Origin: an archaeon
GTDB taxonomy: Archaea; Asgardarchaeota; Thorarchaeia; Thorarchaeales; Thorarchaeaceae
DNA: 32,000 bases
Assembly: GCA_024275415.1 (NCBI GenBank)
Contig: JAJRZD010000035.1
Span: forward strand, 1-32,000
Direction of reading: 5' to 3'
In this document: in pieces, positions 3-8,889 of the stretch
How positions within the stretch are numbered: position 1 is the stretch's first letter
Layout: every line of letters begins with the position of its first letter
Position numbers and translations under genes: made by a program
Notes under the pieces: generated by a model
What the model was told of the DNA's origin: nothing
The model's database searches: none
The model's input: the letters and a program-made list of their open reading frames with translations, nothing else

Positions 3-1094
3 AAGCAAGGCGAGTCCCCTTCTTATGTGAGAACAAGTCTTGCAGCCGCGATGACAATGGGGAAAATGAGTGGAAGCTTCTATCGGAATGCGAAACTCCA
101 CTGTGTTAACCTCCTCCTGACATACGATGAAGGCTGTCACGCGAAATGTGCGTACTGTGGGCTATCTGGCTCGCGTGAAACCGAGTCTGAGTGGACCGAG
201 AACTCCTTCATCCGTGTTGACTGGCCTGTCTATTCCATCGAAGAGGTAAAGGAAGCACTAGCAAGTGGCGTCTGTCCTCATGTGGAACGTGTCTGTGTTT
301 CCATGATCACACTGGGAAAGGCCCGGGAGGATTGTATCTCCGTAGTGAAGGATCTGAGCGAGGTCATCCCTCGAATCTCTGTCCTGCTTACCCCGACAAT
401 CGTGAATAGAGATTGGCTTGTGCGCGTGAAAGAAGCAGGCACTGATAAGGTCGGAATCGCAGTGGACGCCGCGACACAAGAAATATTCGAAAAAATGCGT
501 GGAAAGGGCGTAAATGGTCCGCACCAATGGCAGCGATACTGGGACACCATCAAGGACTCCGTAGAAGTCTTCGGGAAACACAATGTGGGAGTACATCTGA
601 TAGTCGGGCTGGGCGAAACTGAGCAAGAGATGCTAGAAACAATCCAGCGTGCACACGATTTGGGTGCTCGGACACACCTGTTTTCATTCTTCCCCGAGGA
701 TGGCTCTGCAATGCAGGACATTCCCCAACCACCTCTTGGTGCTTACCGAAGAGTGCAGTTTGGGCGTTACATCATCAACTATGATCATGGACGATACGAG
801 GACATGACCTTCAACGAGCATGGACAACTCACGTCGTTCGGACTGGATTCTGATGTCTTCGAACGCCTGCTTTCCTCTGGTGAGCCATTCATGACCTCCG
901 GATGCTCTGGTGCTACAGTAGAGAATGCGTGTAATCGACCTTTCGGGAACTGCACTCCATTCCAAGCCGCTGTGGGACACTGGAGGAACTTTCCCATCAA
1001 CCCCAATCAGGATGATGTCGAGATAATCCGAGAGCAATTGAATGATTACTCGCTAACATATGATTTTGAAGAGGTCGAGAAAGAGTTTGAGTGA
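3..1094 (+). CDS. lipS2: Radical SAM protein, LipS2-type subunit of the archaeal two-component lipoyl synthase (probably 5'-truncated by the window edge)
   Basis: Frame is open from position 3 (KQGESPSYVRTSLAAAMTMG). CxxxCxxC (CHAKCAYC) plus C-terminal TSGC...CNRP, matching the TxGCxxC(N/D)RP-type motif described for LipS2. Lies next to a second radical SAM gene, a lipoate ligase and a GGR-like flavoprotein. Confidence 0.8.
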   Translation, partial: KQGESPSYVRTSLAAAMTMGKMSGSFYRNAKLHCVNLLLTYDEGCHAKCAYCGLSGSRETESEWTENSFIRVDWPVYSIEEVKEALASGVCPHVERVCVSMITLGKAREDCISVVKDLSEVIPRISVLLTPTIVNRDWLVRVKEAGTDKVGIAVDAATQEIFEKMRGKGVNGPHQWQRYWDTIKDSVEVFGKHNVGVHLIVGLGETEQEMLETIQRAHDLGARTHLFSFFPEDGSAMQDIPQPPLGAYRRVQFGRYIINYDHGRYEDMTFNEHGQLTSFGLDSDVFERLLSSGEPFMTSGCSGATVENACNRPFGNCTPFQAAVGHWRNFPINPNQDDVEIIREQLNDYSLTYDFEEVEKEFE

Positions 1095-2115
1095 TGACAT
1101 AGACTCGCTCCTTGATCTTTGTTTCAACGGATCCGAAGAGGAGCTTACACCACTCTTTGAGAAGGCATTCGAGGTTTCTCGATCCCGGTTCTCTAATGTG
1201 CTCGCACTACATGCTCCAGGGATGGTTCATTATAGCACAGATTTCCATACTGCAACTGACCCCTACCGTTTTCCAAGTGTTTCTATTTCTGGCTCAGGAT
1301 GTTCATTGAGCTGTGAGCATTGTAGTAGGAAGCTGCTTGAAACCATGATTCCTGCAACGACTCCAGAGATGCTATGGGAAACCTGCCTGAAAGTTTCCGA
1401 AAAAGGCGGAGAAGGGGTTCTCATCAGTGGGGGTTCTACGCCAAAGGGCAACACTCCTCTTCTGGACTTCATTCCTACAATCAAGCGGGTCAAAGAAGAC
1501 CTTGGATTAGATGTCGTCGTACACACAGGCGTTGTATATCCCGATGTGGCTGAAGGTCTTGGTGACGCAGGCGTAGATGGGGCAATGCTTGATATCATCG
1601 GTGATGAGGCTACATTGCGGGAGGTTTACCACCTTGATCTTCATGTCTAGGTCTTTGATGAATCTCTTTCGTTGCTAGAGGACAATAATGTCCCCAGTAT
1701 GCCTCATATAGTGGTCGGGCTCTATTATGGCAAGCTTCGTGGCGAGTCGAATGCCATCAGGATCATCGCTCGGCATGACCCGCAGTCTATCATCATTGTT
1801 GCCTTCAAGCCATTAGAAGAAACACCTATGCACAATGTGGTTCCAGCATCTCCACTGGATATCAGTCGTGTCCTCTTAGCATCTCGTCTGGTCTTTCCGG
1901 ACAAGCCTGTCATCCTTGGATGCGCGAGGCCGCATGGTGACCACCGCCGAGAAACAGACATCCTTGCAATCCGTGCTGGTATCAATGGGATGGCATACCC
2001 GACGGAGGAAGGATACGAGTTCGCAGAAACATTGGGACTAGTACCGAAGATGTCCAACAAATGCTGTTCGTTGATGGATGATGTATTGCCAATACACAGG
2101 GAGCTGAAGATGTAG
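1087..2115 (+). CDS. lipS1: Radical SAM protein, LipS1-type subunit; reading frame interrupted by an in-frame TAG at 1648-1650
   Basis: ORFs 1060-1650 and 1672-2115 share one frame separated only by TAG. The N-half has CSLSCEHC (CxxxCxxC); the C-half has GCAR (1918-1929) and CC (2062-2067), the motifs described for LipS1. Start is TTG 1087 (8-nt overlap with lipS2) or ATG 1060. Confidence 0.8.
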
Positions 2116-3729
2116 ATGGAACAATGGAGATTGCTGGACACAGGTGTTCTCACAGGCTCTGAGAATATGGCGTTAGATGATGCGATATTGGAATGCCGCT
2201 CGGCAGGCACGACTCCTAATACACTCAGATTCCTTCAATTCAACCCTGCCACTGTGTTGGTCGGGTTTCATCAATCAATAGCGCAAGAGGTTCGATTGGA
2301 CTATTGCAGGGCCCATGGCATCGATGTTAATCGGCGCATCACTGGAGGCGGTGCAATCCTCTTTACTCCCACCTGTCTTGGATGGGAGATATTTGCCGAT
2401 AAATCCGTTCCCGGGATACACGAGCTTCGTTACGACCTGGATCGTCTGGCTCAGTTGATATGCTCAGGGACTGTGCTCGGTCTGAAGGAGTTAGGCGTCG
2501 AGGCTGAGTTCCGTCCAAAGAACGATATCGAGGTCAATGGACGAAAGATATCCGGTACTGGCTGGACTGAACGCGGCACTGCGTTCATGTATCAGGGAAC
2601 CTTATTGGTGGACTTTGATGTCGAACTGATGCTGAGAACTCTGCGAATTCCCGTCGAGAAGCTACAGGACAAAGAGATTGAAAGCGTGAAGGAACGAGTG
2701 ACCTGTCTAAAATGGGAACTTGGGTATGTCCCCCCATTGAACGAGATAAAACGGGCTCTCGCAAACGGGTTCGAGCAAGTCTTTCAGATGGAGTTAGAAG
2801 AAGGTAGGCTTACTTCAGAAGAAGAGGCTGTATTCAAGGAGTTCCTCCCAGAGTACCAGTCTGATGACTGGATTGACATGGTCAAACCCCCCAAGGATCA
2901 CGCAGGACATGTGACCGCCGTCAGAAAGACCCCCGGAGGTCTGATTCGTGTTTCGTTGTCGTTGAATGTGGCTGGCAATTTCATCACTAACAGTTTCATT
3001 ACTGGTGATTTTCAGATATTCCCCCAGCGTGCAGTTATGGATCTTGAAGCCAAGCTGAAGAATATTGCCACCGATGAAGAAACCATCCGGAAGAATGTCA
3101 TCGAGTTCTTTGAGCAGACTGGAACGAGGATATTTGGTGTCGAACCCGAGGAGCTTGTCCAATTGTTCCTTGAGGCAACAAAGAAGACTGCTTTCAAAGA
3201 GATTGGAATATCCCTTGAGGACTCTAACCACCTTATGACAGTAAACTTCATGCCTGATGAGGTCTTGGATCAGAGATTCGACTATATCCTTCTTCCCTAT
3301 TGTGCCAAGCTTGTCAATTGTGATTATAGACAAACTGAAGGATGCAGTGTATGTGGCGCATGTACTATCGGCGATATCTACGAGCTCGCTCAGGACTTGG
3401 ACATTCCCGTTCGAACTATTCAGAACTTCGAGCACCTCATTGCGACCATTGACGAGTTCAAGAAAAAAGGTGCACGGGGCTATGTTGGTTCCTGTTGTGA
3501 AGGGTTCTATAACAAGCACCATCGGGATTTCCTTGAAACTGGAGTGCCAGGTTTGCTCATAGATGTTGATGACTCAACATGCTACGAACTTGGAGAAGAG
3601 CATGATGCATATGTCGGTAAATTCGAAGGTCAGACTGCGCTGAAGCTTGAACTCTTGCGAAGAGTGCTCTCGGCCCTAAGAGAGAGAGGACGTATTCATG
3701 GGAGGACAACCGAGAGTGCAAAAGTATGA
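2116..3729 (+). CDS. Lipoate-protein ligase, Lpl(AB) order (catalytic plus accessory domain), with a C-terminal Cys-rich DUF116-like domain
   Basis: WRLLDTG..G..NMALD, RRITGGGAI, KNDIEVNGRKISGTG catalytic signatures; KTPGGLIRV accessory domain; C-terminal LPYCAK...C...CSVCGACTIG...GSCCEG. Confidence 0.88.
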   Translation: MEQWRLLDTGVLTGSENMALDDAILECRSAGTTPNTLRFLQFNPATVLVGFHQSIAQEVRLDYCRAHGIDVNRRITGGGAILFTPTCLGWEIFADKSVPGIHELRYDLDRLAQLICSGTVLGLKELGVEAEFRPKNDIEVNGRKISGTGWTERGTAFMYQGTLLVDFDVELMLRTLRIPVEKLQDKEIESVKERVTCLKWELGYVPPLNEIKRALANGFEQVFQMELEEGRLTSEEEAVFKEFLPEYQSDDWIDMVKPPKDHAGHVTAVRKTPGGLIRVSLSLNVAGNFITNSFITGDFQIFPQRAVMDLEAKLKNIATDEETIRKNVIEFFEQTGTRIFGVEPEELVQLFLEATKKTAFKEIGISLEDSNHLMTVNFMPDEVLDQRFDYILLPYCAKLVNCDYRQTEGCSVCGACTIGDIYELAQDLDIPVRTIQNFEHLIATIDEFKKKGARGYVGSCCEGFYNKHHRDFLETGVPGLLIDVDDSTCYELGEEHDAYVGKFEGQTALKLELLRRVLSALRERGRIHGRTTESAKV

Positions 3730-4786
3730 TGTGGTTGTTGTCGGTGCAGGTCCTGCCGGGTGCAGTGCTGCCGTCACATGTGCATCATTAGGAATGGAAG
3801 TTCTTCTACTATACCGCAAAAAGAAGGAGGCGCGGAAACCCTGCGGTGGAGTTCTACCTTGGATTACCACCGAGATAATTGAGGACATCTTTGACGAGGC
3901 GTTGCCTTCTAGGGTAATGAACAACCCTCAAGAGCTGGGTCTCTATTACGTCCCACCGAGCGGACGAAACGAGAGCGGTCGTGTCAGGAACTACAGGATT
4001 CACTATATTGTCCGTGAGAAGTTCGATGCATGGCTGATTGATATTACTGCCAGCGCAGGTGTTGAAGTCTTGACCGAAACCCGGGCCATCGCCCTCGAAG
4101 GTAACTCTCCTATAACAGTTCATGCTAAACGGCACAGCGGGGAAGAAATGTCATTCCAAGCAGAATATTTAGTCGGCGCAGATGGCGTTAGTTCGATGGT
4201 CAGACGGTCATTGTCCTTGGAGTCCGCAGCGGACTTCTTGATTGTGGGACAGCAGCTTTGGAGTAATAGAAGACATAGCGACCTAGAGGATAATTTCTAC
4301 GGCTTTTTCCGTGGGGACATTTCCATTGCATATTCCTATGCTATCCCAAAAGGCGATGACATACTGATTGGCACAGGCGTTCGACCTAGGCAAACACCCC
4401 ATGCCTTTGATGCACTTGATCGTTTCAAGGAATGGCTTGTTGACGACTTCAACTTTGATGATTCTACAATGTTGAAAAAAGAAACATGGGCAATCCCATT
4501 CGGATATTTCATCCCTGGGACAGGCAACACCTTGTTGGTAGGTGACGCAGCAGGACTATGCAACCCACTTTCTGGAGAAGGTATCCGATTGGGAATAGAG
4601 TCTGGTGAGGCGGCAGGTTCAGCAATCTCCAAAGCTAAAGAAGGTAATGACCTCTTGCAGTATTATATCCGTGAAGTCGATGGCATCGCTCGTATGGTAT
4701 TGGACTTGCACAAGTTCGTCGTCACAAGCACAGACGAATCGAGACAGGAATTTGTCCGGCAAGAACTGACGCGAGGCATCATCTAA
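3698..4786 (+). CDS. Geranylgeranyl-reductase-family FAD-dependent oxidoreductase; LipT-like by context
   Basis: DVVVVGAGPAG FAD motif, KPCGG, VGADG..S, LLVGDAAG..NPLSGEGI. Overlaps the ligase 3' end and is the fourth gene of the lipS cluster. Confidence 0.85.
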   Translation: MGGQPRVQKYDVVVVGAGPAGCSAAVTCASLGMEVLLLYRKKKEARKPCGGVLPWITTEIIEDIFDEALPSRVMNNPQELGLYYVPPSGRNESGRVRNYRIHYIVREKFDAWLIDITASAGVEVLTETRAIALEGNSPITVHAKRHSGEEMSFQAEYLVGADGVSSMVRRSLSLESAADFLIVGQQLWSNRRHSDLEDNFYGFFRGDISIAYSYAIPKGDDILIGTGVRPRQTPHAFDALDRFKEWLVDDFNFDDSTMLKKETWAIPFGYFIPGTGNTLLVGDAAGLCNPLSGEGIRLGIESGEAAGSAISKAKEGNDLLQYYIREVDGIARMVLDLHKFVVTSTDESRQEFVRQELTRGII

Positions 4787-4843: not shown

Positions 4844-6208
4844 TTGGACTCTACCATGCTCGTTGATAAGACCCTGTGTGACCCAAGCAAATGTGATATC
4901 GAGTGCTACAAGGCTTGTCTTGAAACCCATGGTTCGGATGCTCCTCTCACTTATGACATGGGTGGGGGCTATCCAACCATAAGACAAGAATCCTGTACTA
5001 ATTGCTTGAGATGTCTTCGCGCATGCCCCTATAACGCATTGAAGACTGACTCGACAAGAAAACGACGTACACACCCCGAGAGGAAAAAGGGACGTAGCCC
5101 GCAGAAGAAACCATACGTGGTGTCTTCGCAATGGGTCAGATTCTCGGAAGCCGACATGATTTTTGCTCGCGTACGTAATGACCCCTCCTTCGAGAACTAT
5201 CAGAAGAGTGAATGGTGGGGGGCTGAGAACATGATTGCACAGGGAATACCTGGGTATGGGCGGTTCGAGCATCATCTTGCAGCAGCTGGATGGACACTAT
5301 ATGATGAACGTACGAAGATTAATCCTCGTACGACCGATTACAGGACTACCATATCAAAGTCCAAGAGGATCAAGTCATCGCGTGAAACCTTAACAGATGC
5401 TATCAAGCGAGCTGCCCGTTTCTATGGTGCAGATCTCGTTGGAGTCGCAAGGGTTGATTCAAGATGGTTGTACACGCAGAACCGGAACCGTGAGGACTAT
5501 CACTTTCCCAAGTCTTTAAACCGGGCGGTTGTCATCGCGGTGGAAATGGACTATGACGGCATAGCGACTTCTCCTGCCTTTACATCATCTGCAGTCACTG
5601 CATTAGGGTACTCACGCATGGCTTTTGTGGAAATAGAATTGGCAGGCTTCATTAGGAGTTTAGGGTATACAGCTGTGCCCACTGGGAACGATATCGCTCT
5701 TAGTGTTCCCATGGCAATTGATGCAGGCCTCGGGATGGTCGGACGGAACGGGATACTGATAACGAAGGAATTCGGTCCTCGAGTTCGGATCGCAAAGGTA
5801 CTGACTGATATGCCTCTTGAATACGATGAGCCTGACATGAAATTCTGCAAATCTATCATCGAATTCTGTAAGGTCTGTGAAAAATGTGCAAGCACATGCC
5901 CCTCGCAGTCCATACCCTACGGAGAAAGACAAACCTGGAAAGGGGAAACACGCTCGAACAATCCGGGAGTGAAGAAATGGTATATCAATCCCGAAACATG
6001 CTATAACTTCTGGATCGAGAATGGTTCAGAGTGCTCCAACTGCATACGTTCTTGTCCCTACAATAAGCCAAACAATGTGTTTCATCGCTTCATTGTATGG
6101 ATTACCGTGAACTTGCCATGGCTGGACAAGGTCATCGTGAAGATGGATGACTTGTTCGGTTTCGGTAGACAAAAGAACCCCTTGTCGTATCTCGCCAAGC
6201 TTAAATGA
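4844..6208 (+). CDS. rdhA: Reductive dehalogenase-like cobalamin/Fe-S protein (RdhA family) with an extra N-terminal 2x[4Fe-4S] domain
   Basis: FYGADLVGVA, IAVEMDY, VPMAIDAGLG.VGRNG.LIT.EFGPRVR..KVLTD.PL, CKVCEKCASTCP and C...CSNCIRSCP. The DMIFAR and W..NPETCY.FW segments fit RdhA better than QueG. No Tat signal. Alternative start ATG 4856. Confidence 0.75.
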   Translation: MDSTMLVDKTLCDPSKCDIECYKACLETHGSDAPLTYDMGGGYPTIRQESCTNCLRCLRACPYNALKTDSTRKRRTHPERKKGRSPQKKPYVVSSQWVRFSEADMIFARVRNDPSFENYQKSEWWGAENMIAQGIPGYGRFEHHLAAAGWTLYDERTKINPRTTDYRTTISKSKRIKSSRETLTDAIKRAARFYGADLVGVARVDSRWLYTQNRNREDYHFPKSLNRAVVIAVEMDYDGIATSPAFTSSAVTALGYSRMAFVEIELAGFIRSLGYTAVPTGNDIALSVPMAIDAGLGMVGRNGILITKEFGPRVRIAKVLTDMPLEYDEPDMKFCKSIIEFCKVCEKCASTCPSQSIPYGERQTWKGETRSNNPGVKKWYINPETCYNFWIENGSECSNCIRSCPYNKPNNVFHRFIVWITVNLPWLDKVIVKMDDLFGFGRQKNPLSYLAKLK

Positions 6209-7764
6209 CCTCTGAACACCCCGTTGCGAAGGAGAATAAGTATTACAACATCATAAAACTGGTAGATACGCATAATCAATGTTCATTTCATCCAAACGAG
6301 GCTGATACGATGACTAAGAAGGTACAACGACGCAACACGGAAGACAAACCTTCTCACTTCGAGTTCACCCTCGGCGATGTCAAGCTGGATGAAACCGTGT
6401 TACATATGATTCTTGAACACAGCCACGATGCAGTTCTTATTGTTGGAATGGACTATAAATTCGAATACGTGAGCGAAGAAGGCTATAAGATGGTGAATGC
6501 AAAGGCAGGTGAGCTTATCGGTCTTGACTTCAGAGAGTACATGCCTGATGAAATGGCTCGCAAAGAGGTTGTGCAGCGGTTACGGGACATGCTTGCAGGT
6601 AAAGATGTGTCGCCTTCCTATAGCACTAAGATTCTCGATACCGACGGGAACATCCTCCATGTCGACATTCGAATAGTATTGATTCGTGATATCAATGACC
6701 AGCCAAAGGCACTGGTTCTGGTTCACGATAGGACAGAAGAGCGACTGAGTCAGGTTGCGCTTGAGGAGTCAGAATATCGTTATAGGTCACTCGTTGAGTC
6801 GATGAATGACGGTTTGGCGGTTGATACTCCTGATATGATTCTAACATACGCTAATGATGCCTTTTGTCAGATGTTGGAATACACAAGGGACGAGATTGTG
6901 GGACGATGCTGGCTTGATTTCACAACTGCTGATAGGGATGAAATGGAAGAACGTATCCGACAACGGGAAGAAGGTCAGTCAGAACGTTACGAGCTAGAAT
7001 GGATCACAAAGTCAGGACGGGCAGTCTATACCCTTGTGTCTGCTGTTCCCCTGTTCGATAGGTCTGGGGAGTTCAAGGGCACTTTTGGCGTAGTGACCGA
7101 CATAACAACGCAGAAGGAATATGAGGACACCATACAGTTCTATCTCGATCTGCTAACTCATGATATTGCCAATCAGCTTCAGGTCATCATGACTGCTGTA
7201 GGACTCCTTGACCAAGACCTGCCCAAACAGTACCTCGATGATGCTCGACAGGACATCACTGATGCCATCCAACGATGCGACAGGTTGATCACGAAGGTCA
7301 AACGTGCCGGGCAGACGCGATACCTGCCTCTCACCAGAATGGATCTTGCAACCGTCATCAAGGAGAAGGCGGCAGTTCTGCAAAGGGTATACTCTACGGA
7401 AGTAACCTTGAAAGGGATGAATGGTGCTTCTATGGTCTGGGCTGATGCCCTTCTAGGCGAGATGGTGTGGAACCTTCTAGAGAATGCAGCGCGTCACAAT
7501 CCAAGTAAGAAACGTAGAGTATGGATTTCAACATCACGAAAGAATGGCAATCTGCAACTTGTTATCTCTGATAATGGTCCAGGCATTTCAGACTCGAAGA
7601 AAAAGACCCTCTTCCAAAAAATGCAGCGGTCTGGAGGAGTTGGCCTCACCCTAGTATCCCAAATGATTCGCAAGTATGGAGGCACTATTGAGGTGAACGA
7701 CAGGGTGAAGGGCTCGCCCTCAAAAGGGGCGAAGTTCATCATCACCTTGAAGCCAGCAGAATAG
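6205..7764 (+). CDS. PAS-PAS sensor histidine kinase (soluble)
   Basis: Two PAS/PAC units, H-box LLTHDIANQL, N-box NLLENAARH, G1 DNGPGI, G2 GGVGL; no TM segment. Start is 6205 (ATGA overlap with rdhA) or 6310. Confidence 0.88.
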   Translation: MTSEHPVAKENKYYNIIKLVDTHNQCSFHPNEADTMTKKVQRRNTEDKPSHFEFTLGDVKLDETVLHMILEHSHDAVLIVGMDYKFEYVSEEGYKMVNAKAGELIGLDFREYMPDEMARKEVVQRLRDMLAGKDVSPSYSTKILDTDGNILHVDIRIVLIRDINDQPKALVLVHDRTEERLSQVALEESEYRYRSLVESMNDGLAVDTPDMILTYANDAFCQMLEYTRDEIVGRCWLDFTTADRDEMEERIRQREEGQSERYELEWITKSGRAVYTLVSAVPLFDRSGEFKGTFGVVTDITTQKEYEDTIQFYLDLLTHDIANQLQVIMTAVGLLDQDLPKQYLDDARQDITDAIQRCDRLITKVKRAGQTRYLPLTRMDLATVIKEKAAVLQRVYSTEVTLKGMNGASMVWADALLGEMVWNLLENAARHNPSKKRRVWISTSRKNGNLQLVISDNGPGISDSKKKTLFQKMQRSGGVGLTLVSQMIRKYGGTIEVNDRVKGSPSKGAKFIITLKPAE

Positions 7765-8193: not shown

Positions 8194-8889
8194 ATGCGGA
8201 TAGCTTCGATAATCGATATCAGTCTGGTCGATGTTCCTAGGATCCCAGTCACAGTCATCTTTACGGGAGGGTGTAATTTCGACTGCCCCTATTGTCAAAA
8301 TGCCAGTTTAATCCCGCGCTCGAGTGGTGAAGAGCTCTCTCATGATGACATCATCGCCAAGATGGATGATTTTCTTTCAGACGGGTTCTGTATCACTGGT
8401 GGAGAGCCCACCATACAAAACGATCTCCCGGACTTCCTCGGCGCGCTCCGAAAACGCATTGGAGGACATATCAATCTAAACACGCAAGGCTCCATTCCCA
8501 CGACCCTCAAGAGGTCGCTACCCTTCCTAGATTCTGTATGGTTCGACATCAAGGCTTCCCCTAGCCATTATCAGGTCGTAAGCAGGACTAAGCATGATCC
8601 ATGGCCCTATATCCGGGAGAGCATAGACCTAGTTCTCCGTGCTGATGCCGAATTCTGGCCAAGAACTACTTATGTAGGCAATCTATTATCCCCTCAAGAT
8701 CTTGTGGACATCCTTGAGTTTCTTGAAGGGGTTGGATTTGACGGGACTTATACGATTCAAAACTACGTTCAATCAGCGGGTGTCCGACCCGATGAAACCT
8801 CTCATTTAGTAGAACTAGATATGAGCGATGCAGTGGACGCAGTCGAGTCATTTGCTCCTTCTTTTGATATCTCTTTCATGTGGAGATAG
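8194..8889 (+). CDS. nrdG: Anaerobic ribonucleoside-triphosphate reductase activating protein (glycyl-radical activase, radical SAM)
   Basis: ISLVDVP...VIFTGGCNFDCPYCQN, ITGGEPTIQ, NLNTQGS, FDIKA, RTT motifs typical of the NrdG2 type. Confidence 0.8.
   Translation: MRIASIIDISLVDVPRIPVTVIFTGGCNFDCPYCQNASLIPRSSGEELSHDDIIAKMDDFLSDGFCITGGEPTIQNDLPDFLGALRKRIGGHINLNTQGSIPTTLKRSLPFLDSVWFDIKASPSHYQVVSRTKHDPWPYIRESIDLVLRADAEFWPRTTYVGNLLSPQDLVDILEFLEGVGFDGTYTIQNYVQSAGVRPDETSHLVELDMSDAVDAVESFAPSFDISFMWR

Follow-up and report, generated by a model that had tools for sequence, protein, structure and literature searches.

Genes and motifs of the lipS2-lipS1-lpl(AB)-lipT locus

The window analysed here is a 32,000-nucleotide (nt) stretch of DNA from an archaeal genome that is 92.9% complete. 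It begins with four genes on the plus strand: lipS2 (3..1094) and lipS1 (1060..2115), each encoding a radical S-adenosylmethionine (SAM) lipoyl synthase subunit; a ligase gene made up of an Lpl(AB) part (2116..3165), with a catalytic LplA and an LplB-type accessory domain, and a C-terminal DUF116 domain (3166..3729); and a lipT-like gene (3698..4786) for a flavin adenine dinucleotide (FAD) flavoprotein of the geranylgeranyl-reductase (GGR) family. Taken together, these genes very probably constitute an accessory lipoate-assembly operon of Thorarchaeota, lipS2-lipS1-lpl(AB)::DUF116-lipT. The open reading frames of lipS2 and lipS1 overlap by 35 nt, those of lipS1 and the ligase abut, and those of the ligase and the flavoprotein overlap by 32 nt. 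An earlier reading of the letters alone, hereafter the sequence-only reading, had described four overlapping or abutting same-strand genes of these identities, and the open reading frames, family scans and cysteine motifs all agree with it; its assignment of the DNA to an Asgard archaeon is likewise borne out, as the closest loci and the closest proteins are all labelled Candidatus Thorarchaeota. The start of the window is also the start of its contig (C11), and the last 311 bases of another contig of the genome, C54, are identical to its first 311. The true start of lipS2 is the ATG at C54:8915, 37 nt before window base 1, and joining the two contigs gives a full-length LipS2 of 376 amino acids (aa).

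The part of LipS2 encoded in the window matched NF053743 with 217 bits, versus at most 58 bits for the next-best family, and gave 49 bits for PF04055 in a Pfam scan. LipS1 contains an in-frame TAG at codon 197 (1648..1650, plus strand), which falls between the radical-SAM cluster half of the protein and its auxiliary-cluster cysteines; read through this codon, LipS1 matched NF053742 with 195.6 bits over residues 68-336, a match that spans the stop. The bioB profile scored only 25 bits for LipS2 and 39 bits for LipS1, so that the grouping with biotin synthase named by the sequence-only reading as counting against its proposal was not found. The cysteine motifs on which that reading relied are present and invariant: C58-x3-C62-x2-C65, C111, C314 (TSGC) and C323 (CNRP) of LipS2 are 100% conserved in 59 sequences, an alignment that takes in a paralogue from contig C100 which passes the family cut-off, and C81-x3-C85-x2-C88, H155, H216, C288 (GCAR) and C335-C336 (CC) of LipS1 are 100% conserved in 55. 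In Thermococcus kodakarensis, LipS2 acts at C8 of the octanoyl chain and LipS1 then acts at C6, and the cluster ligands of both proteins have been mapped by mutagenesis (PMC9585515). By analogy, LipS2 from the window would insert the C8 sulfur and LipS1 from the window would insert the C6 sulfur.

The ligase carries an LplA-B_cat catalytic domain (PF21948, 158 bits, residues 15-220) and a Lip_prot_lig_C accessory domain (PF10437, 25.6 bits, residues 271-350), both above cut-off, and K144, the lysine of its GRKISG motif, is invariant in 14 orthologues. The gene is 537 codons long because a DUF116 domain is fused to its C-terminus (PF01976, 36.4 bits against a gathering score of 25, residues 356-491). 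In 20 sequences from archaea and bacteria, eight cysteines of this domain are invariant, namely C396, C402, C410, C413, C416, C460, C461 and C489, in a pattern that includes CxxCxxC. DUF116 (arCOG02078) has been predicted to be a metal-binding protein with a flavodoxin-like fold and a role in electron transfer (Makarova 2015, PMC5898192). An AlphaFold2 (AF2) model of the fused domain, with a predicted local distance difference test (pLDDT) score of 86.9, has a flavodoxin/CheY-like alpha/beta fold and agrees with that prediction. A Foldseek search with the model returned no match at E <= 0.001, VIA-align found generic Rossmann and receiver folds only, with a best Z of 7.2, and a search of the Protein Data Bank (PDB) found no sequence relative of the domain. 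We predict that the fused domain binds a metal or an iron-sulfur (Fe-S) cluster. The same genome also encodes a stand-alone canonical DUF116 protein (C56:3384-3839, a 221-aa frame) with a family score of 131 bits; the 39 bits reached by the fused copy in this comparison suggest that the latter belongs to a divergent subfamily. The fourth gene product scored 177 bits with TIGR02032 (GG-red-SF), above the cut-off of 158.8, and 77 bits with FAD_binding_3.

Conservation of the module and its surroundings

The operon is intact and colinear in 15/15 loci from 14 Thorarchaeota genomes. Among 24 genomes of the family, 17 gave both the fused ligase and a window-type LipS1, and the remaining 7, which are 81-98% complete, gave neither; this joint presence and absence argues that gain or loss affects the operon as a whole. 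Scanning one genome per species identified at least 532 loci with a full-length ligase-DUF116 fusion, in Thorarchaeota, Bathyarchaeia, Jordarchaeales, Thermoplasmata, Chloroflexota, Desulfobacterota (Desulfovibrio desulfuricans among them), Bacillota, Nitrospinota and others. Neighbours were counted in the best 80 of these at least 532 loci, 70 of which have room after the ligase and 37 of which have 4.5 kb on each side. This revealed that in 64 of the 70 loci the gene directly after the fused ligase, in the same orientation, is GGR-like, and that 33 of the 37 contain both lipS genes. Thorarchaeota, Bathyarchaeia and Jordarchaeales share the arrangement S2-S1-lpl-T, and most bacteria have lpl-T-S1-S2 or lpl-T-S2-S1.

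Of 64 bacterial loci, at least 26, most of them from Desulfobacterota, have a GcvH-like gene upstream of the module, often with a gene for an HdrD-like CCG protein beside it and sometimes also with one for a multihaem cytochrome c/NarI-like membrane protein or for a GlcD-like FAD oxidase. The D. desulfuricans locus (L092:536-11533, NZ_CP176628.1) additionally encodes a LipB-LipA fusion there, near the GcvH-like gene. The same-strand genes upstream of the fused-ligase module recur in Desulfobacterota (loci L092, L083, L110 and L119 and about 20 others of this phylum) and encode a fusion of a multihaem cytochrome c with a NarI-like membrane domain, a GcvH-like protein, one or two HdrD-like CCG Fe-S proteins and sometimes a GlcD-like FAD oxidase, a set that resembles a membrane redox complex with a lipoyl carrier at its core. 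The arrangement parallels the logic of the sHdr-LbpA system and suggests a dedicated lipoyl redox carrier as the client of the module in those bacteria.

In six Thorarchaeota loci (L039, L040, L041, L043, L048 and L050), a second Lpl(AB)-type ligase gene directly follows lipT; its product is about 350-375 aa long, is 27-32% identical and lacks DUF116, and the gene is missing from the present genome. On the upstream contig C54, a histone-deacetylase-family gene (C54:7738-8817; PF00850, 260 bits) precedes lipS2 by 97 nt on the same strand and is followed, going outwards, by divergent genes for sensor and beta-propeller proteins. Only genomes of the same genus and of one further Thorarchaeota genus (L036) keep the histone-deacetylase-family gene beside lipS2; a role as deacylase or lipoamidase can only be guessed at. 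Downstream of the operon, the window encodes a reductive-dehalogenase-like protein (4844-6208) that has an N-terminal ferredoxin domain and no signal, a PAS histidine kinase (6205-7764) and an NrdG2-type radical SAM activase (8194-8889), the first two of which adjoin the operon within the genus only.

The in-frame TAG of lipS1 and the other lipoate genes of the genome

If translation ended at codon 197, the radical-SAM half of LipS1 would be made without C288, C335 and C336, and the enzyme would be dead. None of 11 aligned lipS1 orthologues from related genomes is interrupted (11/11 open), and at the TAG column they encode E, D, T or S, using GAG in the two closest orthologues, from which the TAG of the window is one transversion away, and GAC in the third. 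No match to PylS (TIGR02367) was found in the 92.9% of the genome that is available, and no tRNA with a CUA anticodon was found whether or not introns were allowed, an absence that is unproven as only 23 tRNAs were detected. TAG is in ordinary use as a terminator: it ends 781 of 2283 long open stretches (34%) with no excess of TAG-split frames, and lipS1 itself terminates at a TAG (2113-2115). The orthologous codons, the missing pyrrolysine machinery and this usage together indicate a nonsense allele or a consensus error, and we conclude that this codon arose by nonsense mutation or by a fault of the assembly and is not recoded. Apparent TGA and TAA stops within orthologues, which had raised the suspicion of selenocysteine, proved to be the regular stop codons of those genes, past which the match had run on. 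A tRNA-Sec gene (anticodon TCA) is present in the same genome (C69:8832-8922), and the organism therefore probably makes selenoproteins.

If the TAG were instead decoded, as pyrrolysine or by programmed read-through, LipS1 would be made at full length and the operon would be functional as written. That both halves of lipS1 keep every conserved residue in an otherwise intact frame, and that tRNA-Sec attests to some recoding in this genome, would fit such a reading, but the lack of PylS in a genome 92.9% complete and of a CUA tRNA among the 23 tRNAs detected, the routine use of TAG to close open stretches and the variability of the site, with GAG in the two closest orthologues, make it scarcely credible. 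The operon may, on the other hand, be decaying, with lipS1 a true pseudogene and lipoylation left to the other lipoate genes of the genome described below. We regard this as quite possible, though we do not favour it: the operon is dispensable, being missing from the 7 of 24 family genomes noted above, an intact LipS1 paralogue exists, and termination at codon 197 deletes the auxiliary-cluster cysteines. However, the lesion is a single one, the neighbouring genes are intact and 77-81% identical to same-genus orthologues, and one wrong base in the consensus of this metagenome-assembled genome (MAG) explains the TAG equally well. The claim of the sequence-only reading that the operon is complete depends on the TAG being erroneous or being read through.

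A separate basic set of lipoate genes is found elsewhere in the genome. Contig C100 encodes a LipS2 that scores 316 bits, above the cut-off of 270, and adjoins an LplA that is a bare large subunit of 256 aa without LplB or DUF116; contig C120 encodes a stand-alone LipS1 (214 bits) beside an ADP-forming acetyl-CoA synthetase; and a third LplA is encoded on contig C36. LipA was not found in the available 92.9% of the genome. The basic set comprises the same enzyme families as the window: identity to the window proteins is 32% for LipS2, 46% for LipS1 and, for the LplA domain, 40% by tblastn and 41% by a second genome search. It differs in that no flavoprotein is linked to it, whereas the window operon is flavoprotein-linked, and in that its LipS2 passes the NCBIfam cut-off. 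The existence of this set, with LipS2 and LplA on C100 and LipS1 on C120, suggests that the window operon is an optional second line. A gene for a TnpB-family RNA-guided endonuclease lies near the stand-alone LipS1 (C120:7823-8854; L023).

Neither the window nor the upstream contig C54 encodes a lipoyl carrier (GcvH, LbpA or E2), in keeping with what the sequence-only reading had noted for the window. Candidate acceptors in the genome are a canonical GcvH1, whose gene adjoins that of GcvT, a divergent GcvH2, and an E2 encoded on a contig of 1.8 kb. GcvH2 (C1:61251-61685; L025:7249-7689, minus strand) scores 109 bits, just under the cut-off of 117, and its gene lies in a block, conserved across the Thorarchaeota family, that encodes HdrD-like, GlcD-like and Orc1/Cdc6-like proteins, GcvH2, a RadA-like protein and a protein of about 1970 aa. 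Two arguments for GcvH2 as the acceptor were tried and rejected: by co-occurrence, it is present in 23/23 matching family genomes, including 7 that lack the operon, so that there is no exclusive pairing, and by neighbourhood, the HdrD-like/GlcD-like block is syntenic family-wide and present in an operon-less genome. In a quick GcvH tree, GcvH2 sides with most of the module-linked bacterial carriers (support 88, with a single canonical reference), a placement that we take as a lead only. A 276-aa 'lipoyl' match on contig C125 was discarded as the biotin carrier of a pyruvate carboxylase/oxaloacetate decarboxylase.

Flavoprotein, DUF116 and comparison with known systems

That the window flavoprotein works like LipT, as the sequence-only reading had proposed in preference to a lipid reductase, is well supported, its conserved position directly after the ligase speaking strongly for such a helper. 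The competing view, that the gene encodes a reductase of isoprenoids, lipids or other C=C substrates and is no more than a neighbour of the lipoate genes, draws on its being an ordinary GG-red-SF member with PCGG and GDAAG motifs, and on the tree, in which it does not group with the bacterial module flavoproteins. In that tree the archaeal module-linked flavoproteins group together with 100/100 support, on a long branch and separately from nine paralogues encoded in this genome, and the bacterial module flavoproteins form a separate clade (99/98) that joins the Thorarchaeota paralogue on contig C62 (99/90). We nevertheless consider a lipid reductase very unlikely: the position after the ligase is held in 64/70 loci across many phyla, the gene overlaps that of the ligase by 32 nt, the archaeal clade is set apart from the paralogues of its own genome, and with the lipid-reductase model NF041080 the window flavoprotein scores 69.5 bits versus 419 and 448 bits for the paralogues on contigs C116 and C98, respectively, which are the better lipid-reductase candidates of the genome.

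Based on published work on LipS1/LipS2 and sLpl(AB), lipoylation by these proteins would begin with the ligase half, which would activate octanoate (or lipoate) with ATP and attach it to a lysine of a lipoyl carrier. LipS2 and then LipS1 would insert the C8 and then the C6 sulfur, each using a radical-SAM and an auxiliary [4Fe-4S] cluster, and the LipT flavoprotein and the eight-cysteine DUF116 domain of the ligase may form the redox support of this chemistry. We hypothesize that electrons would most likely pass from NAD(P)H to the FAD of LipT, on to a metal or Fe-S site of DUF116 and from there to the radical-SAM clusters. More broadly, and tentatively, DUF116 may be an Fe-S module that together with LipT makes the lipoate line self-sufficient, either by electron relay or by rebuilding sacrificed auxiliary clusters, and it could then do so as part of the very protein to which the octanoylated carrier is bound. 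A role other than that of a relay, namely as an Fe-S or sulfur donor that rebuilds the auxiliary clusters of LipS1 and LipS2, as NfuA does for LipA, or as a structural zinc site, seems rather unlikely to us. Eight invariant cysteines do exceed the needs of one cluster, LipS1 and LipS2 carry auxiliary [4Fe-4S] clusters of the sacrificial type (PMC9585515), and DUF116 sits on the protein that holds the acceptor, but electron transfer is the better fit for the CxxCxxC motif and for a domain almost always paired with a flavoprotein (PMC5898192).

Several observations weigh against an accessory lipoate-assembly operon as proposed here. LipS2 (217 bits), LipS1 (195.6 bits) and the ligase (TIGR00545, 156 bits) all fall under the NCBIfam curated cut-offs of 270, 230 and 280 bits, respectively, which suggests that they are divergent family members; the LipS1 encoded on C120 of the same genome, at 213.8 bits, is likewise under the cut-off of 230. 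In the present assembly the lipS1 of the window is not an intact frame, and the Thorarchaeota operon lacks a linked acceptor. The fold match of DUF116 is generic, with a Z of at most 7.2, and both the putative binding of a cluster by this domain and the donation of electrons by LipT are hypothesized. Finally, forcing the archaeal and bacterial module flavoproteins into one clade cost 17.4 log-likelihood (lnL) units and was borderline rejected (approximately unbiased (AU) test p = 0.04), for a group that was named after a quick tree had been seen and that involves a long branch of 2.7; the tree lends no support to a common descent of the archaeal flavoprotein and bacterial LipT.

The conserved eight-cysteine domain on the ligase and the flavoprotein nearly always encoded next to it, in hundreds of mostly anaerobic species, are candidates for the redox or cluster supply of LipS1 and LipS2, whose in vitro assays use dithionite as the reductant (PMC9585515). 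DUF116 thereby gains a first pathway context, and if the proposed role is true, the old orphan family would acquire its first function and the in vivo reduction of LipS1 and LipS2 would be explained. For Asgard biology the meaning is more modest: Thorarchaeota keep two parallel lipoylation lines, one of them optional and of a type shared with bacteria. The Desulfobacterota module, with its GcvH-like carrier and HdrD-like disulfide reductases, hints at lipoyl redox carriers outside the sulfur oxidisers.

The pathway itself, its clustering with lipT and its presence in Asgardarchaeota are already known. LipS1 and LipS2 in Asgardarchaeota and the transfer of a bacterial-type Lpl(AB) into Thorarchaeota have been reported (Tanabe 2023, PMC10332631), and the same study described the pathway of ligase plus LipS1/LipS2, its clustering with lipT and LipT as a proposed electron donor. 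As the sequence-only reading had held, the gene set of the window fits the published LipS1/LipS2 route (PMC9585515) and the lipS1-lpl(AB)-lipS2-lipT clusters (PMC10332631). The fusion of DUF116 to the ligase is mentioned neither in Tanabe 2023 nor in a 2026 preprint on specificity, and a whole-word literature search for DUF116 returned nothing concerning lipoate; the fusion and its tight pairing with the flavoprotein were thus not found in the pathway papers checked.

In the sulfur oxidisers Thioalkalivibrio sp. K90mix and Hyphomicrobium denitrificans, the same four functions are clustered, namely a ligase, two radical-SAM sulfur insertases and a GGR-family FAD protein (PMC6067878, PMC10332631). 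The order sLpl(AB)-LipS1-LipT-LipS2 found there differs from the S2-S1-lpl-T order of the window. The sLpl(AB) genes of the oxidisers are linked to those for sHdr and LbpA, and no such genes lie in the window or on C54, the two regions covered, no whole-genome search for sHdr having been made. The Thioalkalivibrio ligase, so short that its small accessory domain was first thought to be missing, is much shorter than that of the window with its DUF116 domain of about 185 residues and eight cysteines (PMC6067878).

Compared with T. kodakarensis LipS1 (TK2109) and LipS2 (TK2248), the window proteins share the Cx3Cx2C motif and the kinds of auxiliary ligand (PMC9585515). The auxiliary ligands C230 and C276-C277 and the conserved His159 of the T. 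kodakarensis LipS1 have counterparts in one cysteine, a CC pair and a histidine of the window LipS1. The auxiliary cysteines C85, C276 and C279 of its LipS2 can be equated with C111, C314 and C323 of the window protein by family position, not by direct alignment, and the last two form a C-x8-C spacing in the window as opposed to C276/C279 in T. kodakarensis. The two genes are adjacent in the window and far apart in T. kodakarensis, and the window differs further in its TAG-interrupted lipS1 and in scores under the curated cut-offs. The fused DUF116 domain, for its part, belongs to the same Pfam family as the stand-alone DUF116/arCOG02078/COG1852 proteins and shares with them CxxCxxC and further cysteines (PMC5898192). 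Canonical DUF116 proteins have two N-terminal transmembrane helices and are encoded near sulfite/nitrite reductase or ATPase genes (PMC5898192), whereas the domain in the window is soluble and fused to a lipoate ligase.

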